From positions 725 to 64,724 of the forward strand of contig DATJHM010000048.1 of NCBI GenBank assembly GCA_035493895.1: 64,000 bases of DNA, in the 5' to 3' direction. The notes beneath the pieces are model-generated. The model did no database searches, had not been told where the DNA came from, and worked only from the letters and a program-made list of their open reading frames with translations. Shown in pieces: positions 365-14,200 of this stretch. This DNA is from Ktedonobacteraceae bacterium (GTDB lineage Bacteria > Chloroflexota > Ktedonobacteria > Ktedonobacterales > Ktedonobacteraceae). The first letter of the stretch is position 1. Each line of letters begins with the position of its first letter. The translations under genes were made by a program, and so were the position numbers.

Positions 365-1975
365 TTAAGAACAGCCAAGCTGCAATAATTGTTCACTGCA
401 ACAATACGTGGAGCTTGGTGCCGCAGGCGTTTGCGCGTTGACATAGTGGTGAGAAAAGATGTCTGCATACATCTTTGCAACCATCGGACCAACGTCGAGC
501 CCTCCATCGCCACCATTCTCTTTCATCGCTACGATGGTCAGATCCGGCAGCTGATTGGGATTGCTTATGGAGTAGGGGGCCTGCGTGATCATCCACGCAT
601 TGGCGGCGGGAGTTCCATTCGTGCTGACCTGACCGGTGCCGGTCTTGCCAATAATTCCCCACGGCGAGTTGTAGAGATCGGGCACAATCGAACCTGAACC
701 ACAGCGCGCTACCCCGTACATCGCCTGACGCACTTCCGTTGCCGTCTGCTGGCTCACAGGCGAGCTGAGCTCCTGAGGCGTGAAGGACTGAACAACGCTG
801 TTGCTTTTATCGGTGATTTTCGAGATCAGTGTTGGTCGCATCAGCCGTCCATTATCGGCGGCGACGTTATTAATCAGGGCCATCTGCAATGGGGTCACGT
901 TATCGTAGCCCTGACCGAAGGCATCCTCCGCCAGCGCATTGTCGGCCAGCGACTGATTATTTTTCAGCACGGTGCTGGTGGCAACAGGCAGATCAAAAGG
1001 AATTTTCTGGCTGAGATACAGACGTTTCGCGTAATTAAGCCAGGTCTGCTGCCCGATATTGACCCCGATCTGGCCATAAATCAGGTTGTCCGAGTGGGTA
1101 TAGCCATATTCGGTCGAAACCGGGAAATGGAATGTATAGCCTTGAATATTATTGCCAATAATTTGCTGACCATCAATGTAGAGGGGACCCATGGCATGCT
1201 GCTGGTCAAATCCCTGGTTCAGCGTCGTTTTGCCACTATTCAGGCCCGCCATCAACGTTACCGTTTTAAAGACTGATCCCGGGATAAAGAGCCCCTGGGT
1301 AGGACGTTCCAGGAGCGGCTGTTCTGTATCATTTGCCTCCTGATTGTAGTAGGCAAGATTATTGACGTTGAGCTGGTTCACAAGCGTATTGGGATTGAAC
1401 GTAGGACGGCTCACCATTGCCAGAATTGCCCCTGTCTGTGGGTCCATGACGATAACCGCCCCACGATCGCTTTGAAAGGTATTGTCATTATCGATCTTTA
1501 CGTAGGTATCGAAATCCTGGTTGACTATTTTCTGAATGCGCTCATCTATGGTCAGATAGAGCGAATCTCCTACTGGTGGCTGATGAAGCGTTTGATTCAC
1601 CAGGTTTTCCAGGCTGCTCGTTCCTACCTGCCCGGTGAGGTAGTTATTATACTGCTGTTCTATGCCTGTTGAACTATATTGGGTGCCAGCATAATACCCG
1701 ATGAGTCCGGCCAGGGATGGATCGGTATAGCGGCGAACATAGCCACATCCTGTCCCCGTATCTGTAGGGACCGATTCTGCCAGCAGCACGCCATTGCGGT
1801 CATAAATCTTCCCGCGCACAGGCACGTTAGCCGGAAGGCAAGAACGAAGATTGTGAATATTACTGGTCACCTGCTGTGCCACTACGACTTGCCAGTAGAC
1901 AAGACCTGCACTGGCGGCAATGAAGAAGGCAACAAATAATATGGCCAGTTTGCGTATATTTGAGGCAATATTCAT
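365..1975 (-). CDS. penicillin-binding protein 2 / FtsI-type peptidoglycan D,D-transpeptidase
   Basis: 536 aa with an N-terminal TM helix and the transpeptidase motifs SVFK (SxxK), SDN (SxN) and KTGTG (KTG). ATG start at 1975. Confidence 0.9.
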   Translation of the reverse strand: MNIASNIRKLAILFVAFFIAASAGLVYWQVVVAQQVTSNIHNLRSCLPANVPVRGKIYDRNGVLLAESVPTDTGTGCGYVRRYTDPSLAGLIGYYAGTQYSSTGIEQQYNNYLTGQVGTSSLENLVNQTLHQPPVGDSLYLTIDERIQKIVNQDFDTYVKIDNDNTFQSDRGAVIVMDPQTGAILAMVSRPTFNPNTLVNQLNVNNLAYYNQEANDTEQPLLERPTQGLFIPGSVFKTVTLMAGLNSGKTTLNQGFDQQHAMGPLYIDGQQIIGNNIQGYTFHFPVSTEYGYTHSDNLIYGQIGVNIGQQTWLNYAKRLYLSQKIPFDLPVATSTVLKNNQSLADNALAEDAFGQGYDNVTPLQMALINNVAADNGRLMRPTLISKITDKSNSVVQSFTPQELSSPVSQQTATEVRQAMYGVARCGSGSIVPDLYNSPWGIIGKTGTGQVSTNGTPAANAWMITQAPYSISNPNQLPDLTIVAMKENGGDGGLDVGPMVAKMYADIFSHHYVNAQTPAAPSSTYCCSEQLLQLGCS

Positions 1976-2249
1976 GTGACTGCTCGATTTCTATTGTCTG
2001 ATGCCAAGAAGAACCTGGAGAGATATTTGAGCTCCTTCTCAGTAGTGTGATCTTTTCTCTTGTAACTATACCATGTCTACTATTATTATTCCAATGGATG
2101 TGACTGGCATTGATCATATCAGGAAATACTACATATAATGTAAAATTATGCAATATTTTAAATATTTTACGCTTTTGGCTCTGGAGCCGCTCAAGCATAA
2201 GAAGCTTCGCCTTACGAATATTGTGCCTGAATTTGAGGCACAATGAGCA

Positions 2250-2300
2250 TTGACAACGAATCGTATCTCAACTATATTACGTGCATCGGATTTATCCGAT
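2250..2300 (+). promoter_or_regulatory. Cassette 1 promoter plus 5' leader hairpin
   Basis: TTGACA (2250-2255), a 17-nt spacer and TATATT (2273-2278). The hairpin ATCGGA-TTTA-TCCGAT (2285-2300) starts 7 nt after the -10. The same layout occurs in 5 copies. Confidence 0.7.
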
Positions 2301-2304
2301 CAGC

Positions 2305-2377
2305 TCAGGCGTAGCTCAGATGGTAGAGTGTCTGCCTGTCACGCAGAAAGTCGCAGGTTCGAATCCTGCCGCCCTGA
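2305..2377 (+). tRNA. tRNA-like module 1 of cassette 1 (Asp-type GUC anticodon arm, non-canonical acceptor)
   Basis: D arm TAGCTCAGATGGTAGAGT, anticodon arm TCTGC-CTGTCAC-GCAGA (identical to bacterial tRNA-Asp) and T arm GCAGG-TTCGAAT-CCTGC. The acceptor strands TCAGGCG / CGCCCTGA pair only with a bulged C, and the helix extends into leader and trailer. Confidence 0.55.
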
Positions 2378-2386
2378 ACTGTCGGT

Positions 2387-2460
2387 GGGGGCGTGGTGCA
2401 GCGTAAGCATTGTACCTCCAACTTGTACAGGACGCCGGGTTGAACTCCTGGCCGCCTCCA
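2387..2460 (+). ncRNA. tRNA-like module 2 of cassette 1 (Ala-type acceptor G3:U70/A73, 9-nt anticodon loop CTCCAACTT)
   Basis: Invariant GGGGGCGTGGTGCAGCG ... CGCCTCCA. T arm GCCGGG-TTGAACT-CCTGGC (6 bp) and anticodon arm TGTAC-CTCCAACTT-GTACA. Confidence 0.55.
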
Positions 2461-2525
2461 CATCCTGTCCTATCCCCTGGTCTGCGTTGAAGCGATTAGT
2501 ATCTGAGAGATAGATAGATATAAGT

Positions 2526-4487
2526 ATGCCCGATGAGATAGTATCACCGGCTCTTTTCACGGAAGCCGCCAACATGGATACGTTCCCGGCGCGGCTCACT
2601 GCTCTGGCGCGTTTTGCTGCCCTCCAACCCCTGATCGCGGCGAACCCGGCAACGCCGCCCACAACCTTAGAGCAGCTCAGTACGTCCACCGATCCTGGCA
2701 TACGGCGCGCAGTGGCTCAGAATCCCAATGCATCCGTACAGACGTTGTGCCGTCTGGCAGGCGAATTTCCCCAGGAATTTTTGCACAATCCCATTATTCC
2801 CCTCCTGAGCATGACCCGGCCTGCCTTTGTCAAAGATCTTCCTCTCCTTTCCTGGGCAAGCCTGCTCAGATTCGAAAATCTCTCTCGCTCGTGGCTGCAA
2901 CAAATCGTGACGGATAAGAGCTATGAGCGCAATCGGTCTCCTATCTTGCGGCTGGTGCAGTTGCATGTGACCCAGGCAGGCAAAAAGCCCGAAGCATGGC
3001 GATTTGAGGCGACGCACGCGTTGCGGGCATATCGACAAATAGGGAAGTTTCAGCAAACGGTGGGATATCAACCAAAAGCTACTCCCCTTGCTTCCATTCA
3101 TCAACAGGCTGAGATAGATATATTTCTCTTGTTGGCTCTGCTGTGCCCTCAATGTGCCCCGATGTTGAAAGAGCAATGGACCAATGTTGTACACACATCG
3201 CCTGATCGTATCGTGGGCGCGCTATCTTCGTCTCTGGCGATAAGCAGTAAAACGCTGTCTTTGCTCTCGTTTGAACGCAATGTGCCCGTACTCTGCCAGG
3301 TAGCTCGTCATCCGCGCACACCCGCGAATGTTCTGGTGCACCTCGCAGGTCGTCGTCTTTCATGGGAAGTGCGGTGCGCCGTCGCCAGCAATCCGCATAC
3401 TCCATTGGAGAATGTCTATCGGCTGCTGTCTGACAGCAAGCGTGTGGTGCGCCGGGCTGCTGTCTCGCATCCCGCTCTCACGCAACAGGACTACGAAATT
3501 CTTGCTCTCGATCAGGAGACCTCAGTACGTGCTGCTCTTGCCAGAGTGCCCCGGATCGGACTCGATTTGTTGAGCCAGCTGGCCCGTGACCCCGCGCCAG
3601 CCGTACGAGCCGCCGTTGCCCGCAATGTGAAAATCAACGTGGAGACTCTTACCACATTAGCACATGATCCCGAGCCAGTAGTGCGCGCTGCGGCCGCCGC
3701 CAACTCGCGTCTTCCGGGCGAGATACAGAGCATGCTGGCTACCGATCCTGAAGTTGCTGTGCGCGCCGGAGTGAGCGGGAATGCACGTTTACCTGAGTCG
3801 TGCTTTGCCGTGCTCGTGCAAGATCCCTCGCCGCTCGTGCGTAAACAGCTCGCCGCCAATTCGCGCCTGCCCGTCCAGCATCTCGAAACACTCTGGCGAA
3901 CGGGCAATGCGGAGGTCTGGCAGGGGGTCGCACGCCATCCTCAGACCGCTCCAGAACTGCTGACACAACTGGCGCAACAGGGCGATGCACGTGTGCGCGC
4001 AGCCGTTGCCGCTCACAGGCAGACGCCGCTCGAAGTGCTCTATGCCCTGGAGCAGGAAAATGTACGCGAGATCTGGCAGGGTCTGGCTATGAACCCGAAC
4101 GCGCCGCTTGACATCCTGGAACGTGCGCTTGCTACACCGTATACCGATCTCTGGTATCGCCTCTTCAACCATCCGACGATGCTGCGCAATCAGCGTCGTC
4201 CCTATCTCACGCTGCTCGCGAGCAAGCTCCAGCAACTTATGGTTGCAAACAGCTTTCCGAACTGGCTGCGAAAAGTCGTATTCCAATATTACACCTCATT
4301 TCCCGCAACCATCATGGAGCCGTTTGCTAGCTCTCCTCACTGGGAAGAGCGCTACCTTGCAGCTCGCCATCCGCAAATAGCAGAATCGCTCCTTGATACA
4401 CTTGCTCACGATGGCATCTGTTATGTCCAGGCCGGTGCACAGGACGCATTGCAACAGCGCAAACTCTCTCATAATCTGAAGCATTGA
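2526..4487 (+). CDS. leucine-rich-repeat-variant (LRV) / HEAT-like repeat protein
   Basis: 653 aa with many roughly 24-aa repeats of the form LAxDPxPxVRxAVAxNxxxP (for example LARDPAPAVRAAVARNV, LAHDPEPVVRAAAAANSRLP, LATDPEVAVRAGVSGNARLP). ATG at 2526. The TGA stop lies inside the next cassette's -35. Confidence 0.8.
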   Translation: MPDEIVSPALFTEAANMDTFPARLTALARFAALQPLIAANPATPPTTLEQLSTSTDPGIRRAVAQNPNASVQTLCRLAGEFPQEFLHNPIIPLLSMTRPAFVKDLPLLSWASLLRFENLSRSWLQQIVTDKSYERNRSPILRLVQLHVTQAGKKPEAWRFEATHALRAYRQIGKFQQTVGYQPKATPLASIHQQAEIDIFLLLALLCPQCAPMLKEQWTNVVHTSPDRIVGALSSSLAISSKTLSLLSFERNVPVLCQVARHPRTPANVLVHLAGRRLSWEVRCAVASNPHTPLENVYRLLSDSKRVVRRAAVSHPALTQQDYEILALDQETSVRAALARVPRIGLDLLSQLARDPAPAVRAAVARNVKINVETLTTLAHDPEPVVRAAAAANSRLPGEIQSMLATDPEVAVRAGVSGNARLPESCFAVLVQDPSPLVRKQLAANSRLPVQHLETLWRTGNAEVWQGVARHPQTAPELLTQLAQQGDARVRAAVAAHRQTPLEVLYALEQENVREIWQGLAMNPNAPLDILERALATPYTDLWYRLFNHPTMLRNQRRPYLTLLASKLQQLMVANSFPNWLRKVVFQYYTSFPATIMEPFASSPHWEERYLAARHPQIAESLLDTLAHDGICYVQAGAQDALQQRKLSHNLKH

Positions 4488-4534
4488 CAGCGAATGTGCT
4501 CTCGATTATAGTAATGCCATCGACTTTGTTCGAT
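4484..4534 (+). promoter_or_regulatory. Cassette 2 promoter plus 5' leader hairpin
   Basis: TTGACA (4484-4489, overlapping the stop codon at 4485-4487), a 17-nt spacer, TATAGT (4507-4512) and the hairpin ATCGA-CTTTGT-TCGAT (4519-4534). Confidence 0.65.
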
Positions 4535-4538
4535 CGGT

Positions 4539-4611
4539 GCGGGTGTAGCTCAGATGGTAGAGCATTGGTTGGCTAAACCGAAGATTGCAGGTTCGAGTCC
4601 TGCCCACTCTG
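4539..4611 (+). ncRNA. tRNA-like module 1 of cassette 2 (GCU in anticodon position, short variable loop, no U33)
   Basis: D arm TAGCTCAGATGGTAGAGC, anticodon arm TTGGT-TGGCTAA-ACCGA and T arm GCAGG-TTCGAGT-CCTGC. The acceptor region pairs only as a bulged extended helix (GGTGCGGGTG with CACTC-T-GCGC). Confidence 0.5.
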
Positions 4612-4620
4612 CGCTGTTGT

Positions 4621-4692
4621 GGGGGCGTGGTGCAGCGGCAGCATCGTGCACGCAAAGCACGGGAGGCCGGGTTCGATCCCCGGTCGCCTCCA
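4621..4692 (+). tRNA. tRNA-like module 2 of cassette 2 (Ala-type acceptor, GCA in anticodon position, 7-nt loop ACGCAAA)
   Basis: This is the only copy with a 5-bp anticodon stem (CGTGC/GCACG) and a 7-nt loop. Position 33 is C, not U. Acceptor GGGGGCG/CGCCTCC plus A73, and T arm GCCGGG-TTCGATC-CCCGGT. Confidence 0.55.
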
Positions 4693-4727
4693 CATTCTTC
4701 CTATTCTCCCCCTTTTTTTGCCCCGTT

Positions 4728-4757
4728 TTGGGATAGAGACGTTCGTTTTGGTATGAT
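4728..4757 (+). promoter_or_regulatory. Possible secondary promoter upstream of the kinase gene
   Basis: TTGGGA (4728-4733), an 18-nt spacer and TGG-TATGAT (extended -10, 4749-4757). Confidence 0.3.
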
Positions 4758-4933
4758 AGAGATGGGTCTCAGAGGGACTTTTTCGTCTCTCGCCCGTATA
4801 TCATAAAGATGACCTATCGTTGGCTCGATAGTGTGCACATTCAACCCCGCAACAATACGTATGCTCTTTCCGTTTGTTCGCTGTTGCTGAAAATGGAAAG
4901 AGGAATGGCAAAAAATCTCTGGAGAGGCTGCAT

Positions 4934-6952
4934 ATGGTTGATTACATAGGACGACAGCTTGGCAATTATCGCCTTACCCGTCTTTTAGGCAAAGGCAGTT
5001 TTGCGCAGGTCTATCTTGGGGAGCATATCTATCTTGGTACTCCGGCGGCGATGAAGGTGCTCAGCACGCAGATGGCGGACGATCTGGATGTGTTTCGCAC
5101 AGAAGCTCGTACTATCGCTCGTCTGATTCATCCCAATATTGTGCGCGTGCTGGAATTTGGCGTGGAAGGCACCATTCCGTTTCTGGTGCTGGACTATGCG
5201 CCCAATGGAACGCTTCGTCAGTACTACCCCAAAGGCGTGCCTCTCCCCTTGCCAACGGTGGTCTCCTATGTGAAACAGATCGCTGAGGCATTAGCGTATG
5301 CCCACGGTGAAAAGTTGATTCACCGGGATGTGAAGCCGGAAAATATCCTCCTGGGAAGAAATAACGAGTTGCTTCTGAGCGACTTTGGGATCGCTCTGAT
5401 GGCGCAGACGATGCACGATCAGAATATGCAGAATGTGGCGGGTACGCTGGCCTATATGGCCCCTGAACAAATCCAGGGCAATCCGCGTCAGGCCAGCGAT
5501 CAGTATTCATTGGGCATCATTGTCTATGAGTGGCTGACTGGCGAACGTCCCTTCAATGGCTCGTTCAACGAGATAATCTCGCAGCAGCTCTCTGTTCTCC
5601 CTCGTCCCTTGCGCGCAAAGGTTCCGACGATTGCCCCGGCCGTTGAACAGGTGGTGTTGATGGCCCTGGAGAAGAATCCTGATCGACGCTTTAACAACAT
5701 CCGCGCATTTGCCTTTGCCCTGGAGCTGGCGAGCCAGCTCAATGCGTCTGCCTCTGACGTCGCCGGTAAGCCTGCCGGAGTTGGCGAGATCTCCCCCTCC
5801 TTCAGCAAGCCCCAGGGCGATGAAAGAGCCGCGATTGCGCCGACGATTCTCCCATCTCCAGCGCCTGTATCGCCAGCAAACAATGCCGCGCCTCCGACGA
5901 TCCTTCCACCCCCTGAACTCCTATCGCCAGCGAAAAGTGAAGGCCCTGTTGTGCGCCCTGTCGCACCCCCGCCATCAGTACCCACGCCGCAAACAAAACC
6001 CGCGGGAACGCTCGTCTCCAGTTATCAGGGACATCCGAACGAAGTATGTTCTTTATCGTGGTTCTCCGGTGGCGTGCGCATTGTGTCGGTAAGCAATGAT
6101 AAAAGTGTGCATGTCTGGGATGCTATGACGGGCAAGCAGTTCCAGATCTACCAGGATATCGCTGATGCCGTGGGTGTCATCGCAGGCTCACCTGATGGCT
6201 CACGTATTGCCACTGCCGGATCTGATGCCCAGGTGCGGATCTGGGATTTTGCCACGAATCGTCTGGTAACCACATATCGTGGTCATGTCGGAAGCACCAT
6301 TAACGCAATCGCCTGGTCGCCAACGCAGCAGCAGCTCGCTTCCGCCGCTGCTGACGGCACCGTACACGTCTGGGATGCGACGACGGGGCAGACGCTCACC
6401 ATCTATCGTGGTCATACCGGCAGCGTCAATATGCTGGCGTGGTCGCCCGATGATCCTTCGTCGGCGCGTATCGTTTCCGGTGGCGACGATGCGTCAGTGC
6501 AGACCTGGAATGCCTCCACTGGCAGAAGTATTGCGCTCCACCGCAGCCAGGGGGCGAAGGTCATGAGTGTCGCATGGTCGCCGGAGGTATATCCCATGTC
6601 TCTCCAGACGAGCTACTCGGCAAGCATGCCCACGAAGGTTCCCAATAGTGCCCGGGTCGCGTGCGGGAGAGCAGACGGAACGGTACAGATGTGGGATACC
6701 ACCACAGATCGCGAAGTATTAAGCTACCGCTACAATGCCCCTCTCTCCGTCGTCGCATGGTCGCCGGATGGGAGGCGTTTCGCCTATGCCAGCGAAAACA
6801 AGACAGTAGAGGTGTGGGACACCATGACGAATCTCAAACTGGTAACCTTCTCCCATGCCGCTCCAACCCGCGTCATGGCCTGGTCCCCCGACGGAAAATA
6901 CATTGCCTCTGGCGGTGGCGATGCAACGATACAAGTCTGGGTTGCCCCATAA
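4934..6952 (+). CDS. Ser/Thr protein kinase with C-terminal WD40 beta-propeller
   Basis: Kinase motifs GKGSFAQV, HRDVKPENILL, DFGIA and APE. A Pro-rich linker is followed by at least 7 WD repeats (VHVWDA, VRIWDF, VQTWNA, VQMWDT, VEVWDT, IQVWV). The ATG at 4934 is preceded by GGAGAGG. The ORF track's TTG at 4874 is less likely. Confidence 0.9.
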   Translation: MVDYIGRQLGNYRLTRLLGKGSFAQVYLGEHIYLGTPAAMKVLSTQMADDLDVFRTEARTIARLIHPNIVRVLEFGVEGTIPFLVLDYAPNGTLRQYYPKGVPLPLPTVVSYVKQIAEALAYAHGEKLIHRDVKPENILLGRNNELLLSDFGIALMAQTMHDQNMQNVAGTLAYMAPEQIQGNPRQASDQYSLGIIVYEWLTGERPFNGSFNEIISQQLSVLPRPLRAKVPTIAPAVEQVVLMALEKNPDRRFNNIRAFAFALELASQLNASASDVAGKPAGVGEISPSFSKPQGDERAAIAPTILPSPAPVSPANNAAPPTILPPPELLSPAKSEGPVVRPVAPPPSVPTPQTKPAGTLVSSYQGHPNEVCSLSWFSGGVRIVSVSNDKSVHVWDAMTGKQFQIYQDIADAVGVIAGSPDGSRIATAGSDAQVRIWDFATNRLVTTYRGHVGSTINAIAWSPTQQQLASAAADGTVHVWDATTGQTLTIYRGHTGSVNMLAWSPDDPSSARIVSGGDDASVQTWNASTGRSIALHRSQGAKVMSVAWSPEVYPMSLQTSYSASMPTKVPNSARVACGRADGTVQMWDTTTDREVLSYRYNAPLSVVAWSPDGRRFAYASENKTVEVWDTMTNLKLVTFSHAAPTRVMAWSPDGKYIASGGGDATIQVWVAP

Positions 6953-6962
6953 GCGCTCATCA

Positions 6963-6996
6963 GTAGGGACGCCATGGAGGCACGGAATGGCGTCCG
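6963..6996. repeat. REP-like element, family a (GTAG head plus hairpin GGACGCCAT...ATGGCGTCC)
   Basis: The 36-mer CAGTAGGGACGCCATGGAGGCACGGAATGGCGTCCG is repeated identically at 27910-27945 and 28686-28721. This copy sits 10 nt after the kinase stop and may double as a terminator. Confidence 0.75.
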
Positions 6997-7079
6997 GGTA
7001 GCCAACGAATTCTCAGGCACCGAAGACGAGAGCAGCAACAAAAAACCAGCCGAATCGCAGCCCAGAAGCCCAATGAGCA

Positions 7080-7130
7080 TTGACAATAAATCTAAACTCA
7101 ACTATATTGCATACATCGGATTCGTTCGAT
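7080..7130 (+). promoter_or_regulatory. Cassette 3 promoter plus 5' leader hairpin
   Basis: TTGACA (7080-7085), a 17-nt spacer, TATATT (7103-7108) and the hairpin ATCGGA-TTCG-TTCGAT (7115-7130). Confidence 0.7.
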
Positions 7131-7134
7131 CGGC

Positions 7135-7208
7135 GCAGGTGTAGCGTAGTGGCCTAACGCAGCTGTATATCCCGCAGGAGATCTCAGGTTCGAATCCTGT
7201 CGCCTGTG
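7135..7208 (+). ncRNA. tRNA-like module 1 of cassette 3 (AUC in anticodon position)
   Basis: Acceptor GCAGGTG/CGCCTGT (two G-U pairs), extended to 11 bp with leader and trailer. D arm GCGT-AGTGGCCTA-ACGC, anticodon loop ATATCCC and T arm (T)CAGG-TTCGAAT-CCTG(T). Confidence 0.5.
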
Positions 7209-7217
7209 TCGCATAGT

Positions 7218-7291
7218 GGGGGCGTGGTGCAGCGTCAACACAGTACATCCAATTGGTACATGACGCCGGGTTCAACTCCCGGTCGCCTCCA
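7218..7291 (+). ncRNA. tRNA-like module 2 of cassette 3 (Ala-type acceptor, 9-nt loop ATCCAATTG)
   Basis: Invariant GGGGGCGTGGTGCAGCG ... CGCCTCCA. Anticodon stem GTAC/GTAC and T arm GCCGGG-TTCAACT-CCCGGT. Confidence 0.55.
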
Positions 7292-7344
7292 CAGTTCATC
7301 CATTGCAAAACTCTCCTCATCGCAGCCCAGAAGCACAACAAGCA

Positions 7345-7395
7345 TTGACAATAAATCTAAACTCAACTATATTGCATACATCGGATTCGTCCGAT
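7345..7395 (+). promoter_or_regulatory. Cassette 4 promoter plus 5' leader hairpin
   Basis: TTGACA (7345-7350), a 17-nt spacer, TATATT (7368-7373) and the hairpin ATCGGA-TTCG-TCCGAT (7380-7395). Confidence 0.7.
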
Positions 7396-7399
7396 CAGC

Positions 7400-7472
7400 A
7401 CAGGAGTAGCGTAGATGGTAGCGCGTCTGCTTTGCACGCAGAAGGTCGCAGGTTCGAGTCCTGTCTCTTCGT
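7400..7472 (+). tRNA. tRNA-like module 1 of cassette 4 (Ala-type UGC anticodon arm, non-canonical acceptor)
   Basis: The anticodon arm TCTGC-TTTGCAC-GCAGA is identical to bacterial tRNA-Ala(UGC). D arm GCGT-AGATGGTA-GCGC and T arm GCAGG-TTCGAGT-CCTGT. The acceptor ACAGGAG / CTCTT-C-GT pairs only with a bulged C and continues 4 more bp. Confidence 0.55.
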
Positions 7473-7481
7473 GCTGTCAGT

Positions 7482-7554
7482 GGGGGCGTGGTGCAGCGTG
7501 AGCATCGTGCAGCCAAAAGCACAGGACATCAGGTTCAACTCCTGGTCGCCTCCA
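7482..7554 (+). ncRNA. tRNA-like module 2 of cassette 4 (Ala-type acceptor, 8-nt loop AGCCAAAA)
   Basis: Invariant GGGGGCGTGGTGCAGCG ... CGCCTCCA. Anticodon stem GTGC/GCAC and T arm ATCAGG-TTCAACT-CCTGGT. Confidence 0.55.
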
Positions 7555-7607
7555 CACTTCATCCACCGCAAAACTCCCCTCGTGCCACCTCAGAAGCGCA
7601 ATGAGCA

Positions 7608-7658
7608 TTGACAACGCTTTTCCCCTCAACTATATTACATGCATCGACTTTGTTCGAT
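7608..7658 (+). promoter_or_regulatory. Cassette 5 promoter plus 5' leader hairpin
   Basis: TTGACA (7608-7613), a 17-nt spacer, TATATT (7631-7636) and the hairpin ATCGA-CTTTGT-TCGAT (7643-7658). Confidence 0.7.
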
Positions 7659-7662
7659 CGGC

Positions 7663-7736
7663 GTGGGAGTAGCTCGGGTGCTAGAGCGCCTCCTTGCCAA
7701 GGAGAGAGGTCGCAGGTTCGAGCCCTGCACACTCAA
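7663..7736 (+). tRNA. tRNA-like module 1 of cassette 5 (Gly-type GCC anticodon arm, degenerate acceptor)
   Basis: The anticodon loop TTGCCAA is identical to bacterial tRNA-Gly(GCC). D arm GCTC-GGGTGCTA-GAGC and T arm GCAGG-TTCGAGC-CCTGC. The 5' GTGGGAG pairs with the trailer only through an internal loop. Confidence 0.5.
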
Positions 7737-7745
7737 CGTCGTCGT

Positions 7746-7818
7746 GGGGGCGTGGTGCAGCGAAAGCATAGTACGCTCATTAGTACAGGACATCAGGTTC
7801 AACTCCTGGTCGCCTCCA
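7746..7818 (+). ncRNA. tRNA-like module 2 of cassette 5 (Ala-type acceptor, 8-nt loop GCTCATTA)
   Basis: Invariant GGGGGCGTGGTGCAGCG ... CGCCTCCA. Anticodon stem GTAC/GTAC and T arm ATCAGG-TTCAACT-CCTGGT. Confidence 0.55.
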
Positions 7819-7916: not shown

Positions 7917-8951
7917 ATGACGCCAGAAGCTCTCTCAAGTTTTTTGCATAAGCTCGTCGAACATCGTCTGATGTTCAGTACTATGATCTGGGGCGCGCCG
8001 GGCATCGGCAAATCGAGCATTGTCGCGCAGACTGCGGCTGCCTACGAGATGGAGATGATCGATCTTCGCCTCTCACAACTGGCCCCGACGGATCTGCGCG
8101 GCTTGCCCGTGGCTGACAATGGTGTCTCGCGCTGGTATCCGCCCGAATTTTTGCCGCGTGAAGGCAAGGGCATTCTCTTTCTCGACGAATTGAATCTCGC
8201 TCCTCCCGCGATGCAGGGGATGGCGCAACAGTTGATTCTGGATCGCCGCGTCGGGAACTATACGGTTCCCCGGGATTGGTTTGTCTGGGCCGCAGGCAAT
8301 CGCAAAGAAGATCGTGCCGCCGTGTTCGACATGCCCGCGCCACTCGCCAACCGCTTCATCCATCTCACGGTCGAGGCGCACTTTGACAGCTTCAAATCCT
8401 ACGCCCTCGGACAGCACATTCACGAGCACATCCTGGCGTTTCTCTCTTTCCGTCCCGCATTGCTACATAAGCTCGATCCACAGCAGCCTGCCTGGCCTTC
8501 GCCTCGCTCGTGGATGATTGCCAATCGTCTATACAAAGTGGGCCTGGATATCTCGCATGTGGTCGGCCAGGGCGTTGCCGCAGAGTTTGCCGCTTTTCTC
8601 AAGCTCTATCAACAGTTGCCCAATGTCACTGAGATTTTGCAGGGAAACGGCGACAAGATTGGCTTCCCCGATGAGCCATCGCAGCGTTACGCCCTGACCG
8701 TTGCTCTGACTATGCGCGCCACTTCTCTGCAAGAAAGCTATCTGGCATTTCAATGGATGGCTGCGCATGCCGGACACGAATGGATACAGCTCTTTGCTAC
8801 CGATCTCTTCCGTCAGGCTCGCGCACGCAACGAACTGGGACGTCTGGCGACACTGGTGCAGCGCGATAAACGCTTACAGCAAATGTTCATTGAATACATG
8901 AAGTTGCTGGAGGAGCCCGACGCGTTGGAGGAAGCCGATGAGCAAGAATGA
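7917..8951 (+). CDS. MoxR-like AAA+ ATPase (AAA_5 type)
   Basis: Walker A GAPGIGKS, Walker B ILFLDELN, and AAGNRKEDRAAVFDMPAPLANRF. The likely start is the ATG at 7917 (MTPEALSS...). The ORF-track start at 7608 reads through cassette 5 and is rejected. Confidence 0.85.
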   Translation: MTPEALSSFLHKLVEHRLMFSTMIWGAPGIGKSSIVAQTAAAYEMEMIDLRLSQLAPTDLRGLPVADNGVSRWYPPEFLPREGKGILFLDELNLAPPAMQGMAQQLILDRRVGNYTVPRDWFVWAAGNRKEDRAAVFDMPAPLANRFIHLTVEAHFDSFKSYALGQHIHEHILAFLSFRPALLHKLDPQQPAWPSPRSWMIANRLYKVGLDISHVVGQGVAAEFAAFLKLYQQLPNVTEILQGNGDKIGFPDEPSQRYALTVALTMRATSLQESYLAFQWMAAHAGHEWIQLFATDLFRQARARNELGRLATLVQRDKRLQQMFIEYMKLLEEPDALEEADEQE

Positions 8952-10068
8952 TGCTTTTCAGCGCCAGATTTCCGCCGCGATCATTCAGTTGCGCCTGCAT
9001 TCGCCGTTCTTTGCAACGCTCGCGCTGTTCGCCAGGATTATTCCCACGCAAAACTATCCCACGGCGGCAACCGATGGACGCGATGTCTTTATCAATCCAG
9101 ATTTCTGGCGCGACCTGACGACCGCTGAGCGCCTGGGCTTGCTCGCTCACGAAGTACTGCACGCCGCGCTCCTCCACGTGCCGCGCCTGGGCCGACGCCA
9201 TCCCTTAACCTGGAATATTGCAGCCGATATTGTGGTCAATGGCATCATTCTTGCTCAGGATGGTTTTGCGCTGCCGAAGGGGCATCTGCGCTATGCGCAG
9301 CTTGAACAACTGAGTGTGGAGGAAATTTATCATCAGATCCAGGCAAATGCCGACGTACGCAAGCTTTTGCTTCCTCTGTTTGCCGATCTGCTGTTGCCCA
9401 CAGAAGGACTCTCTCCCGACCAGTATGCCGAACTTGAGCAGCACTGGAGGCAGGCCTTACGCCAGGCCGAAACGCTGGTCGAAGTGCTGGGACATGGCAC
9501 GCTGCCAGCAGGCTTGCGGCGCGAAATGACCCATCTCAGCCCCTCTCAACTGGATTGGCGAGCCTATCTCTGGCGCTTCCTGGTGCAAACTCCGACCGAT
9601 TTTGAGGGCTTCGATCGTCGCTTTGTGGGTCAGGGACTCTATCTGGACGCGCTCGCGGGGGAGAAACTGCGCGTCTTTGTGGCGGTCGATACCAGCGGCT
9701 CTATTGGCAGTAAAGAGATTGCGCAGTTTCTCGGCGAGGTGCAGGCCATCCTGGGTGCCTATCCACATCTGGAGGCCATCCTCTATTATGCAGATGCTGC
9801 CTGCTATGGTCCCTATGAGCTGACCCCTAACTCAGAGCTTCCCCCTCCGGTGGGTGGCGGCGGCACCGATTTTCGTCCGTTCTTTGCGGCCGTTGAGACG
9901 ACCCTCGATGCTTCGTCTCATGGCATCTGCATCTATCTGACCGATGGCTATGGTACCTTTCCCAGCGTACCACCCTCATTGCCCGTGCTCTGGGTCCTCT
10001 CTCCCGGCGGGATAAGCATCGAATATGTGCCATTTGGGGAAGCGGTACGCCTGATTCCCGACGTGTGA
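8938..10068 (+). CDS. vWA-like domain protein with N-terminal HExxH metallopeptidase-like domain (DUF2201-type partner of MoxR ATPases)
   Basis: HEVLH zinc-binding motif and a MIDAS-like VAVDTSGSI. The start overlaps the ATPase stop by 14 nt, which suggests an operon. Confidence 0.8.
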   Translation: MSKNDAFQRQISAAIIQLRLHSPFFATLALFARIIPTQNYPTAATDGRDVFINPDFWRDLTTAERLGLLAHEVLHAALLHVPRLGRRHPLTWNIAADIVVNGIILAQDGFALPKGHLRYAQLEQLSVEEIYHQIQANADVRKLLLPLFADLLLPTEGLSPDQYAELEQHWRQALRQAETLVEVLGHGTLPAGLRREMTHLSPSQLDWRAYLWRFLVQTPTDFEGFDRRFVGQGLYLDALAGEKLRVFVAVDTSGSIGSKEIAQFLGEVQAILGAYPHLEAILYYADAACYGPYELTPNSELPPPVGGGGTDFRPFFAAVETTLDASSHGICIYLTDGYGTFPSVPPSLPVLWVLSPGGISIEYVPFGEAVRLIPDV

Positions 10069-11284: not shown

Positions 11285-14200
11285 ATGTTATCGTGCTGGA
11301 ACTGCCACGCGGTATTACCAGAGGGAGCAAAATTTTGTGGACGCTGTGGAAATAAACAAGACACGGCAGCGTCTGTTCTACCATCTTCTCTTCTTACCGT
11401 TCCCCACTCTACTCAACTTGTAGCAACGGACCTTGTGCATCATGATCAACCTGTCGCAACGGACCTGCATCATGATCACTCTGCCGCTCCCACTTTTACC
11501 ATCTACTCGGCCGTTTTGCCGATCAAAACCTGGCTTGCAGAACATCGCGCGACCATTGCCGCAAAACTTTTGACGGTCCTTGTGTATGTCAATACCAGGC
11601 GCAATGAAAACAGAGAGCTTTTTGAAACCAATAGCGGAAGAGAAACTCCTCCGCTCGAAGATCGTTCCTGGGACAAAGTTGCCTTTATTGCCGGGCTGTA
11701 TGCTCGCTTTATGTGGCGCTATGAGTTGAACGCCGAACAGAAACGCAATCTCTGGGATGCCTTGTGCTGGTCCGTGCTCTATGAACGAGCTTTGCGCCCG
11801 AAGATGGCTGATGCCCGCTTTGCCGAACTGGTTGGCTTTTTTAATGGCTGCGCCGGGGATAGCGAATTCTTCGCCTATATGCTCCTGAGCATGCCGCTCT
11901 TACTTGAATATGTTGATACTTCCAATATCCACAAACTCCTGACCGCCAGTGAACGTCTGGGCAACTCATCGGATGTCGTGCATCTGCGCGCATTACTTCA
12001 CCAACGCCTCGTTATGCCTGCCGATGTGGATCTGGAGTCAACTCAATTGACGGTGCTGGCCGATCAGCCCGGCCCGAGACGTGAGTGGGCGCGTATCATT
12101 CTGGCTATTGAACATCTCTGGCAGTTTTTAGACAAAAAACGCGAGAGCAGTAATCAGCGCGCGCTGACCTTTGCCCGCGAAAATCCCATGGACTCGACCA
12201 CTCCTTCGCAACTGGCAACGCTGGGCGGGGTGATTTGTCGCAATGTCGTCTTTCGCTATGCTCACAATAGTACGTTACCTGGCAGCATGCTGACTGCTGA
12301 ACAATTGGCGGACGCCATCGCGCTGGCGGAATACTCGATACGCTATAGTTCAGGTGATTATATTGGTAAGGCCGAATATTATTATCTGCTCTTGAGCAGC
12401 TTACGCGATCTGCGGACACATGTACTCTCGGCCGATGTGCTCGTGAGCGCGCTGAAACGCCAGTTCGCACCCGAGGGATTGGCCCGAATATCGGAATTCT
12501 CCTGGTCCGATCTCCTCGGCATCGTGACGCGCTACCTGAGCGAGTGTCGTCTGGCGGAAACCATTGATGTGGTGGAGGTGGAGTCCTGGATACGCGCTCT
12601 GGCTGATCTTGCTCCTCAGTTTCAACTGGAGGCGCGCAAGGTGTTTGTGAGTGAGGTGCGCCAGCATGGCGTGCGCGACAGTATGGCTTTGCGTGCTTTG
12701 CAGGGCGAGTCATTGGAAATGGTCAGTGAAACACATGACAGGGGGCCACTGGCGTTTCTCGGACAGGAGCGCTACAAAGAGCTGCTGACCTGTATTCGTA
12801 CCTCTCGTCTGGATCGTCTGGGCGAAATTCTGCGTGAGGCGCGCCCGAAACTTTTCGCCGAACTGAGCCGTCTATTGACCGATCAGAAGTTTGCGGAGAT
12901 TCTCCCGCCCCGACGCTCATTGCGCATACGTGGTCGCAATGCCAATGCTCTCGATCGCTTTCAGGAGGCAAAAACGCTTATTCAGAGCGAGAATGTCGCC
13001 GAGCAACAGGAGGGACTTGCTCTCTTCGAGCGAGCTCAGGCTGATACTGCCCGCGAATATCAGCCCGTTGCACGCGAATGGCGTCTGTTCGCGATTGCCT
13101 GCGTCCGGGCGCGCTATCAGGCGGTCCCGCTGTGGGAAGAGGATCGCTGCAAGGGCGTTGCGTCCTGGGAGGAGATCTGGAATCTGGCCGTCTTCTATGT
13201 TCATGTTGGCAAGATCGATCAGGCGTTGGAATTGCTGGTGCCCGGCGTTGAGCGGCAGCGAGCCCCTTTCTCGCATCTGCGTTTTGCCCTCTATTGCAGC
13301 GTGCAGATTCTCGGACAGGGGTCACATTCGCAACACGAGAGCATCGAAGCCGCCGAAACGTTTCTTATGGAGCATCTGAAACAGTATCCCTTGCCGGAAT
13401 GCTATCTGGCATGGTCTTTATTGGTCAGTGAACGCGAGAGTGTTGATCGAGCGCAAAGTACAAACAATATGATGAAGCAACTGACGATCCTGACCAAATT
13501 TAACGAGTTGCTTGACCATCCCATCCTTATCCTGAAGCCAGAGGAGTCGGTCAGCGATTCTGCCCTGGAGACATTTGAAAAAGAACTCCGTCGCCTCGAT
13601 CTGGACGATGTCTGGCGTTTCTGGATTCACGACTATGCCCAACGCAACCGCTATAAATTCAGTGCCTGGCAGGCGCTGAGCGATGCGTACGAGCGCGCGG
13701 GCGAAAGTACCGGAGCTGAAAAGTCCCTGAAACATGTTGCAGATACGCAGCTTGATATGTATCTGAAGCAGCGCGAGAAAAGTAGTGCTGTTGTCTCTAA
13801 TCTGCTGCATCTGCGCAATCATCTATGTAAGTTGTTCGATTTTTATCAACGTCAGGGCCGTTTATTGGACGATGATGTCTTTGCCCGCTTTAAGCACTAT
13901 CGCACGACTGTCCCCGAACTATGGCATGAACGGGAGAGTGCGAATACGAAGTTGATCAAGCAGACACGTCCTCTGCTGGAGAAACTGGGGCGAACAGGCA
14001 GCACAAACGAGTCTTCTGCAACTCAAGCCCCACAGAAAGCCTGGTATGCGCTCGCTTCGGAGCTTACGACTGTCCAGGAAATCGCCACTCTGAAGAGCTT
14101 GCAGGCGCGCATACATACCCATGTCCATCTTCTGACGGATGCGCAAAAGCAGGGTCAGGACGATGTTGCGGGCGTCCTATCGCTGCTGGATGATCTCTGC

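Follow-up and report, generated by a model that had tools for sequence, protein, structure and literature searches.

What are the tRNA-shaped elements that recur along a contig of a Ktedonobacteraceae bacterium, and what might they do if they do not decode? The question is raised by a 64,000-nt stretch of DNA (NCBI GenBank assembly GCA_035493895.1, contig DATJHM010000048.1, positions 725 to 64,724 of the forward strand; here called the window, and numbered from its first letter). An earlier reading of its letters, the original prediction, described five copies of an element termed module 2 (M2) with an alanine-type acceptor stem and an irregular anticodon arm. All five were verified in position and sequence, with the 17-mer GGGGGCGTGGTGCAGCG at 2387, 4621, 7218, 7482 and 7746; this 17-mer has exactly five matches in the window, all on the + strand, and none of 100 shuffles reached five. 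Every M2 is the last part of a unit made up of a promoter, a 5' hairpin, a first module (M1), a short linker and M2, an architecture common to all 31 units examined. M2 is a previously undescribed tRNA look-alike, a tRNA-like non-coding RNA, and judged from its sequence it is part of a cassette of two cloverleaves that carries its own promoter and is linked to a particular gene cluster. It is very probably a selected, non-decoding tRNA mimic. More tentatively, with somewhat less than even confidence, we suggest that it works by way of its top half and core, meaning the acceptor end together with the D and T arms, is charged by alanyl-tRNA synthetase (AlaRS) and serves the co-located proteins.

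The M2 copies of the window, by unit, are as follows.

2387-2460, + strand: unit 1 M2, 7/6 tRNA mimic with G3:U70 and a 9-nt loop, CUCCAACUU; 88.4 bits
G2385-U2386 with A2460-C2461, + strand: unit 1 M2 end pairs, read at the helix extension
4621-4692, + strand: unit 2 M2, 7-nt loop ACGCAAA, miscalled tRNA-Cys by ARAGORN; 82.5 bits
7218-7291, + strand: unit 3 M2, 9-nt loop AUCCAAUUG; 85.5 bits
7482-7554, + strand: unit 4 M2, 8-nt loop AGCCAAAA; 90.0 bits
7746-7818, + strand: unit 5 M2, 8-nt loop GCUCAUUA, the sole M2 above the Rfam tRNA gathering score (30.9 against 29); 89.0 bits

The alignment of the five copies has 50 invariant columns over elements of about 73 nt, with the common 3' end CGCCTCCACA. 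The cloverleaf proposed for them was borne out, as 5/5 copies fold with a 7-bp acceptor stem containing G3:U70, followed by U8-G9, a 4-bp D stem with the 7-nt D loop AGCGNNA, and a 4-nt variable loop. The proposed 6-bp T stem with a compensatory outer pair was also found (G-C, G-U, G-U, A-U and A-U in copies 1-5), as were the anticodon hairpins, with loops of 9, 7, 9, 8 and 8 nt on stems of 4 or 5 bp. The fifth stem pair is present in copies 1 and 2 only, and across the wider family described below it is unpaired in 18 of the 28 scorable copies. The stated lack of U33 applies to copies 2, 4 and 5 and not to copies 1 and 3, which have a U at loop position 2 (CUCCAAC.. and AUCCAAU..), while the stated lack of an alanine anticodon holds for every M2 copy, none having NGC in register. 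General tRNA detection largely passes over the element: ARAGORN calls only the copy at 4621, as Cys, and the Rfam tRNA model gives 30.9 and 27.3 bits for two window copies (threshold 29), the other three having no tRNA-family match.

Homologues of M2 were sought by a pattern scan of species-representative genomes, in which genuine matches were confined to Ktedonobacteraceae (loci L002-L004), and then in metagenomes with a less strict pattern and, after it, a covariance model (R1), which yielded 33 copies, 30 of them distinct. Locus L020 comes from the same species as the window, and the nearest homologues of the neighbouring DUF2201 protein are annotated as Ktedonobacteraceae. A covariation check of the kind proposed with the original prediction was run on the 30 distinct copies, all from Ktedonobacteria, and supported the cloverleaf stems. 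In this set pairing holds for 95.8% of cells, with compensatory changes in 12 pairs; 0/500 shuffles attained the observed values, and slid registers were only 37-54% paired. The stems supported by covariation are the 7-bp acceptor, the 6-bp T stem, the 4-bp D stem and 4 bp of the anticodon stem. As the sixth T-stem pair covaries (AU 17, GC 7, GU 5, other 1), the acceptor/T arm of M2 is 7/6, or 13 bp. The D-stem and inner T-stem pairs are invariant across the family, and so are U8 and the T-loop residues U54, U55 and A58; the D loop has a single central G (no G18-G19), and T-loop position 56 may be C, G, A or U. M2 ranges from 61 to 80 nt in length, with 1-5 copies per locus. The scaffold is near-identical between genomes whose neighbouring proteins share 36-87% identity, which we read as strong purifying selection.

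The conserved G3:U70 of the original prediction is GU in 5/5 window copies and in 28/30 family members, the other two being AU; it is never G:C. The pairs next to it are equally constant in sequence (G1:C72 in 28, G2:C71 in 29 and G4:C69 in 30 copies), and pairs 5:68, 6:67 and 7:66 vary compensatorily on both sides. Pairs 1-4 kept in sequence while 5-7 covary are the footprint expected for AlaRS recognition, and since this footprint is exactly the identity set of tRNA-Ala and transfer-messenger RNA (tmRNA), AlaRS is the most likely reader of M2. Alanylation of M2 is plausible on these grounds.

Some other matches were set aside. The scan matches L001, L005, L007 and L008 were rejected as chance hits in GC-rich coding sequence. 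Eight metagenomic tRNA-His(GTG) genes (L009, L010, L012, L014, L016, L018, L019 and L023) share with M2 the type of D arm (GGTGTAGYGGTARCAC) and possess a GGAGGC acceptor. The pattern picked them up since C73 places CCTCC in its register; scoring 33-44 bits, against 57-91 for members, they were rejected from the family. As a separate observation, a Planctomycetales metagenome-assembled genome (L006, 5177-5249, - strand) contains a canonical 7/5 tRNA-like with the same GGGGGCG/CGCCUCC acceptor (G3:U70, A73), an anticodon loop CCGCGAA (GCG, C33) and 51 bits against R1. It may be an alanine-identity missense tRNA; tblastn at this locus found no homologue of the LRV, MoxR, DUF2201 or SDR proteins that are introduced below.

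The variation in M2 was said to be concentrated in the anticodon arm, and column entropy, computed on the first 27 distinct copies, agrees: it is 1.31 bits per column there against 0.1-0.5 bits elsewhere, so substitutions are not spread evenly over the arms. Pairing of the anticodon stem is preserved under sequence change, as had been claimed, with four stem pairs covarying among the 30 copies. The further step, that the arm undergoes diversification, found no support. Within the window the mean pairwise identity of the loop is 0.46, about as variable as the unconstrained flanks (0.27-0.36 for spacers and trailers), beside 0.85 for the 4-bp anticodon stem and 0.86 for the scaffold. Corresponding M2 copies on three separate metagenome contigs (L017, L021 and L022) have identical arms. 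In five copies the arm is lost or replaced: in L003:5917 it has shrunk to a short linker, and in four copies of L015 it is gone or swapped for a 2-bp UUCG or GCAA mini-hairpin. Where the arm exists its loop has 5-9 nt, and U33 is missing in most copies. We read the arm as a dispensable spacer hairpin under relaxed constraint, and neither as a hyper-diversified specificity element nor as a decoding anticodon. Relaxed constraint argues against mistranslating, frameshifting and anticodon-decoy roles of M2 itself, all three of which had been considered for it and are disfavoured by a dispensable arm. Inspection by eye found no loop-loop complementarity between the anticodon loops of M1 and M2. The arm is thus a freely replaceable insert, and the element a natural 'tRNA scaffold'.

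Could M2 nevertheless be a decoding tRNA with alanine identity, that is, a mistranslating, quadruplet-decoding or frameshift-suppressor tRNA inserting alanine at unusual codons? The combination of G3:U70 with non-Ala loops would fit, the 8-9-nt loops resemble those of engineered frameshift suppressors, many loops contain NCA triplets, and suppressor tRNAs of the missense and nonsense kinds, some of them with G3:U70, have been suggested to exist naturally (PMC5389517). Against such a role stand the loop sizes of 5-9 nt, the five copies without a normal arm and the scarcity of U33, along with the D loop lacking G18-G19, the variable T-loop position 56 and Rfam tRNA scores of at most 31 bits. Canonical elongator tRNAs have a 12-bp acceptor/T arm, and tRNA-Sec, with 13 bp, is not a substrate of EF-Tu; M2 has 13 bp and not the elongator 12. 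We consider decoding by M2 very improbable.

The rest of the cassette lies directly upstream of each M2.

2250-2300, + strand: unit 1 promoter and 5' hairpin, TTGACA-17-TATATT at 2250-2278 and hairpin at 2285-2300
2301-2381, + strand: unit 1 M1, GUC anticodon loop; tRNA-Asp GTC by ARAGORN, 58.7 bits with Rfam tRNA
Within 2301-2381, + strand: unit 1 M1 closing stem, an extended leader/trailer stem with a one-base bulge, read from sequence
4484-4534, + strand: unit 2 promoter and 5' hairpin, TTGACA-17-TATAGT at 4484-4512 and hairpin at 4519-4534
4535-4616, + strand: unit 2 M1, cloverleaf with GCU-type loop and an 11-bp closing stem with a bulged U
7080-7130, + strand: unit 3 promoter (7080-7108) and 5' hairpin (7115-7130)
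7131-7212, + strand: unit 3 M1, closed cloverleaf with degenerate anticodon arm; 'Asp ATC' by ARAGORN
7345-7395, + strand: unit 4 promoter (7345-7373) and 5' hairpin (7380-7395)
7396-7476, + strand: unit 4 M1, closed cloverleaf with UGC (Ala-type) anticodon arm, without G3:U70
7608-7658, + strand: unit 5 promoter (7608-7636) and 5' hairpin (7643-7658)
7659-7741, + strand: unit 5 M1, closed cloverleaf with GCC (Gly-type) anticodon arm

The window promoters are near-consensus sigma-70 sequences (TTGACA-17-TATAKT), a promoter scan giving 11/12 matches in 5/5 units, and promoter and leader are conserved in the alignment of the five units. The 5' hairpin starts at the A of the putative +1; it is predicted in four window units, and in unit 1, where the minimum-energy fold does not draw it, it was read from the sequence. 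In whole-unit folds three independent domains are joined by 0-3 nt, the 5' hairpin abutting the M1 stem and a linker of 1-3 nt separating M1 from M2, and the cassette RNA would be about 175 nt long.

M1 is likewise a cloverleaf. Most copies have a canonical 7-nt anticodon loop, with an anticodon that differs from cassette to cassette (GCC, GCA, CAU, GGC/UGC/CGC, GUC, GCU, GCG, ACC and CCA), and several of these arms presumably resemble those of the corresponding E. coli tRNAs. The acceptor of M1 is an imperfect helix that pairing of leader with trailer extends to a closing stem of 10-12 bp, often with a one-base bulge. The outer pairs of this stem are compensatory between lineages (CGGUG/CGCUG, CGAUAU/AUAUCG and CAACA/UGUUG). 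Duplex energies separate cognate from non-cognate stems weakly (-14.5 vs -10.3 kcal/mol) because the stems share sequence; the closing stem appears better supported by the folds and the visible compensatory changes than by these energies. In some M1 copies (L002, L003:5987 and L025:6809) the D arm is of the M2 type and the T stem has 6 bp, which suggests shared ancestry of the two modules. ARAGORN labelled three cassette modules as tRNA-Ser(GCT) at 4540-4612, tRNA-Cys(GCA) at 4621-4693 and tRNA-Asp(ATC) at 7134-7210. We rejected all three as canonical tRNAs in view of their closed or bulged stems, the lack of a class-II variable arm and one C33. Automatic annotation is misled by such modules, and tRNA gene counts for these genomes are inflated.

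With whole cassettes at hand, the view that they are decaying tRNA pseudogenes or a functionless selfish repeat, kept similar by recent duplication or gene conversion, can be judged. A copy number of 1 to 5 per locus would suit it, as would the acceptor mismatch C6·A67 in L024:11673 and L015:2091 and the degenerate arms of some M1 copies. Such decay does not account for compensatory changes in all stems, for a scaffold kept across genera with flanking proteins 36-87% identical, or for a consensus promoter on every unit. The spacers and trailers are randomised (0.27-0.36) while the scaffold is not (0.86), and the synteny is class-wide and mirrored in another phylum, as described below. We regard this view as highly improbable.

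Which genes accompany the cassettes? In the window these are:

2526-4487, + strand: LRV/HEAT-repeat protein of 653 aa; Pfam LRV 5.8e-36; synteny by tblastn
4934-6952, + strand: Ser/Thr kinase-WD40 protein by Pfam, between unit 2 and units 3-5
7917-8951, + strand: MoxR-type AAA+ ATPase, Pfam AAA_5, directly downstream of units 3-5; 74-87% identical in syntenic loci
8938-10068, + strand: DUF2201 protein, partner of MoxR, a putative metallopeptidase with a VWA-like part; Pfam DUF2201_N 1.4e-31 and DUF2201 7.4e-15; synteny

In L003, L004, L015, L022, L024 and L026 cassettes stand on both sides of the LRV gene and ahead of MoxR-DUF2201; L025 has a single cassette, upstream of LRV. Cassettes (1-5 per locus) around LRV and ahead of MoxR and DUF2201 are the rule in all Ktedonobacterial loci that extend far enough. 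One LRV-MoxR-DUF2201 locus from outside the Ktedonobacteria (L028) has no tRNA-likes. The kinase-WD40 gene had no counterpart in related loci by tblastn, and so is probably an insertion and not a core part; its kinase domain matches the PADLOC PD-T4-6 models (E 4e-67).

In seven Ktedonobacterial loci the cluster is headed by an SDR gene upstream of the cassettes (L025 4973-6736; also L003, L026, L017, L022, L015 and L002). Its product of about 585 aa has a PD-(D/E)xK/NucC-like N-terminal domain (PADLOC 5.8e-9), a CxxC...CxxCG zinc ribbon and an SDR domain split by an insert of about 90 aa. PADLOC gave no match for the LRV, MoxR and DUF2201 proteins or for the cyanobacterial SDR proteins treated below, and PADLOC, NCBIfam and PDB sequence searches of LRV, MoxR, DUF2201 and SDR returned nothing functional beyond domain names.

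The position of the cassettes relative to these genes raises the possibility that they act in cis, as strong promoters with tRNA-like punctuation for processing or stabilisation (by RNase P and RNase Z) of the LRV, kinase and MoxR-DUF2201 mRNAs. The window units do lie on the same strand as the genes and 66-240 nt upstream of them (M2 ends at 2460, 4692 and 7818; gene starts at 2526, 4934 and 7917), and orientation is the same in related loci. A scan for terminator-like sites near the cassettes found one, at 4764-4780, about 70 nt past unit 2, and none after units 1 or 3-5. T-runs, however, follow several M2 copies, tandem units precede another promoter and not a gene (units 3 and 4; L004; L015), and the cyanobacterial pairs sit downstream of their SDR gene. 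The conservation of G:U, D arm and T loop also goes far beyond what a processing signal needs. As a full explanation this is unlikely; a promoter or processing role is possible in part.

Further, SDR orthologues were found in filamentous cyanobacteria and Sorangium, with 46% identity over 385 aa. In 5/5 cyanobacterial loci fetched (Tolypothrix, Microcoleus, Oscillatoria, Aerosakkonema and one uncultured genome) 1-3 tandem pairs of irregular, abutting tRNA-likes come after the SDR gene, within about 250 nt in four loci and with a repeat-protein gene intervening in L033.

L027 13927-14249, L031 9411-9557 and L032 9086-9591: tRNA-like pairs downstream of the zinc-ribbon SDR gene
L033 8944-9435, and L034 7246-7585 and 10596-10740: tRNA-like pairs, likewise downstream of the zinc-ribbon SDR gene

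The first module of these pairs has a variable, canonical anticodon arm (UUC, CUC, UAC, UCC, UGC or CAU), and the second is constant, with acceptor [A/U]GCAACG, anticodon loop GAGYAKA and T loop UGYRAMU (e.g. UGCGAAU or UGCAACU). A pentapeptide or LRR protein, usually nearby, takes the place of LRV, and in Tolypothrix MoxR-DUF2201 also adjoins; the Sorangium SDR locus is without tRNA-likes. The pairs resemble the Ktedonobacterial cassettes as tandem two-module units with a variable first and a constant, odd second module beside an orthologous SDR and a repeat protein. They differ in that the second-module arm is 7/5 with a conserved anticodon loop, and the first module has no extended closing stem. 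The two kinds of cassette appear to share architecture and not sequence. Scans of viral contigs for Ktedonobacterial and cyanobacterial second modules found no match, and in the literature searched we found no published description of the M2 cassettes or of the SDR-linked pairs.

How, then, would M2 work as a charged, non-decoding mimic? It would be transcribed as the 3' module of the RNA of about 175 nt, from its private near-consensus sigma-70 promoter. RNase P and 3'-end enzymes would free M2, CCA would be added, and AlaRS would charge it through pairs 1-4. With its 13-bp (7/6) arm and no anticodon, M2 would then be kept from EF-Tu and from ribosomal decoding, and the RNA or its alanyl ester would serve the LRV-repeat protein and MoxR-DUF2201, plus the PD-(D/E)xK-zinc-ribbon-SDR protein in related genomes. 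Charging of M2 in vivo, taken by itself, we would put slightly short of an even chance.

Several observations weigh against this reading, the ends of M2 foremost. The invariant A73 of the original prediction stands within the window and not in the family, where position 73 is A in 22, G in 4 and U in 4 copies and covaries with the base preceding G1. Positions -1 and 73 are paired in 29/30 copies (UA 22, CG 4, AU 2, GU 1) and -2 and 74 in 26/30 (GC 19, AU 3, CG 2, GU 2), with at least three independent double changes visible; -3:75 is paired in 11/30 copies with mixed types, which is chance level, as are the pairs beyond -2:74 generally. Since N73 covaries with N-1 and position 74 with -2, the precursor helix is a closed one of 9 bp and the 'discriminator' is paired. 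A helix of this kind would get in the way of canonical RNase P cleavage at +1 and, were it kept, would shift the G:U out of the AlaRS register. CCA is not encoded in M2, and two copies, L004:1031 and L025:6899, have A3:U70 with U73; the second of these has no companion M2 in the 21-kb locus examined from Ktedonobacter racemifer. Moreover, the window has no SDR gene but a PBP gene in that place; the cyanobacterial second modules are without G3:U70; and homology between them and M2 is undetectable, as the covariance models R1 and R2 do not cross-detect. The -1:73 and -2:74 pairing can be taken in two ways, one being that it serves precursor processing only, the other that no cut is made at +1, so that there is no free NCCA end. 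Selection on M2 seems in either case to act on the first four acceptor pairs including G:U, the D arm, the T arm and the 2-bp helix extension.

The second way of taking the end pairs leads to a closed two-cloverleaf RNA that is never aminoacylated, in which the transcript of about 175 nt, or M1 and M2 with their extended stems, would be a decoy, bait, scaffold or antitoxin-like RNA. It would serve the nuclease-zinc-ribbon-SDR, the variable repeat protein and MoxR with its VWA-peptidase, the M1 anticodon arm acting as bait and M2 as a constant handle on which a protein reads the acceptor-proximal pairs and the elbow. Helix extensions covary on both modules (10-12 bp in M1, two extra pairs in M2), no more than 1-3 nt link the modules, and the 5' hairpin lies directly against the M1 stem. 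The M1 anticodon loops, mostly canonical 7-nt ones (GCC, GCA, CAU, NGC, GUC and others), suit a bait, the partner repeat protein varies (LRV, pentapeptide or LRR), and the PD-(D/E)xK/NucC-like domain of the Ktedonobacterial SDR is typical of conflict systems. The variable first and constant second module also recur in cyanobacteria. What a closed RNA leaves unexplained is the exact AlaRS identity set, with G:U in 28/30 copies and never G:C; nor does it gain from the PADLOC searches without a match or from the nuclease-SDR gene missing from the window. We hold it to be possible, rather below an even chance yet nearly equal to the favoured reading of M2 as a charged mimic.

On a wider scale, we speculate that the cassettes are the RNA arm of an undescribed system common to multicellular Ktedonobacteria and filamentous cyanobacteria, with M1 as bait or decoy and M2 as constant handle, although this is rather doubtful. 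Its parts would be the zinc-ribbon SDR (fused to PD-(D/E)xK in Ktedonobacteria), a swappable repeat sensor (LRV, pentapeptide or LRR) and often MoxR with the VWA-metallopeptidase. M1 copies would show the anticodon arms of different cellular tRNAs to tRNA-targeting enzymes, and the Ktedonobacterial M2, with its alanine identity and perhaps charged, would couple aminoacylation status or tRNA damage to the proteins.

A charged M2 would be a natural alanyl carrier, dedicated to that task and kept out of translation; it would correspond to the tRNA-like domain of tmRNA but stand on its own, and would point to ribosome-independent use of Ala-tRNA. If it is uncharged, it would represent a new class of tRNA-shaped regulatory or decoy RNA in promoter-bearing cassettes. 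Either way, paired tRNA mimics with a zinc-ribbon SDR/repeat-protein locus in two phyla make a testable new RNA-protein system in developmentally complex bacteria.

Does M2 fall within any RNA class already described? Rfam searches at gathering and E-value thresholds (E up to 5) gave only weak tRNA, tRNA-Sec and mascRNA matches, and in BLAST of the unit against phages and plasmids the M1 body matched ordinary tRNAs and M2 matched nothing. M2 is like elongator tRNA-Ala in the G3:U70 of its 7-bp acceptor stem, but lacks the 7-nt loop with U33 and the NGC anticodon, has a T stem of 6 bp and not 5, and has no G18-G19 elbow pairing with U55 and C56. It is closer to the tRNA-like domain of tmRNA and to tRNA-Ala minihelices in having pairs 1-4 as G:C, G:C, G:U, G:C with a canonical T arm. 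AlaRS recognition needs no anticodon, and M2 function likewise appears anticodon-independent. Unlike tmRNA, M2 is a contiguous element of 61-80 nt without an mRNA-like reading frame or pseudoknots, with a normal 4-bp D stem, a 6-bp T stem and 1-5 copies per locus. The 3' half of M2 presumably resembles that of E. coli tmRNA; E. coli genomes searched with M2 by BLAST yielded no match. ARAGORN found no tmRNA in the window, and there was no Rfam tmRNA match.

The 13 bp of acceptor plus T stem are shared with tRNA-Sec, and the -1:73 pair recalls G-1:C73 of tRNA-His. M2 differs from tRNA-Sec in being 7/6 and not 8/5, in its 4-bp and not 6-bp D stem, its 4-nt variable loop and the lack of a UCA anticodon, and scores 24.7 bits with the Rfam tRNA-Sec model against a threshold of 47. 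From tRNA-His it differs in that its -1:73 pair is mostly U:A and that it has no GUG anticodon.

Another non-coding RNA with a tRNA-like D/T-arm elbow and a closed stem, encoded beside its protein partners, is YrlA; one such partner, Ro60, has a VWA-like domain. The chain ends of YrlA sit in its Ro-binding stem, the acceptor-like stem being capped by a loop, whereas those of M1 and M2 are at the acceptor stem. YrlA is a bacterial Y RNA with a tRNA-mimicking module bound by Rsr/Ro60 (PMC4201824). Rfam gave no Y-RNA or YrlA match even at E up to 5, and no TROVE/Rsr gene is among the neighbours examined (PBP, LRV, kinase-WD40, MoxR and DUF2201).

The nearest published analogue is the irregular tRNA polycistrons and allo-tRNAs of Acidobacteria (Mukai et al. 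2017; PMC5389517), which are similarly co-transcribed, non-canonical tRNAs with odd acceptor/T geometry. Some have G3:U70 or G-1, they lie near toxin-antitoxin loci, and some are chargeable in vitro yet stand outside translation and were suggested to be regulatory non-coding RNAs (PMC5389517). In these tRNAs the acceptor/T arm is split 8/4 or 9/3 (12 bp), the variable arm is long or there is an E-loop, and the anticodon is defined (PMC5389517). M2, compared by description, has a 7/6 split (13 bp), 4 nt in the variable loop and an anticodon arm that it can do without, and it comes from another phylum and neighbourhood. M1 and M2 would share one promoter, and the one conflict-like trait of their neighbours is the PD-(D/E)xK domain, present in relatives. 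From type III toxin-antitoxin arrays, in which one promoter drives tandem short RNA repeats ahead of the ToxN/AbiE-type endoribonuclease that processes them, the cassettes differ in having a promoter of their own for each unit, and LRV, MoxR and DUF2201 had no PADLOC match.

Some further features of these loci should be noted. A 1714-aa protein is encoded at 11285-16429 of the window. A zinc ribbon lies at its N-terminus and an NYN nuclease domain at its C-terminus, and it also has an AAA/ATPase_2-type NTPase region; PADLOC and NCBIfam returned no match for it. In Ktedonospora formicarum (L003, about 1800-3560, - strand) an open reading frame is inserted between a cassette and the MoxR gene, with about 450 nt of non-coding DNA upstream; apparent RRXRR and HNH-type motifs in its conceptual translation suggest an IscB-like protein. 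Finally, the window has a perfect 25-nt inverted repeat with an 18-nt loop at 282-349, just 3' of the PBP gene, which is probably a terminator.

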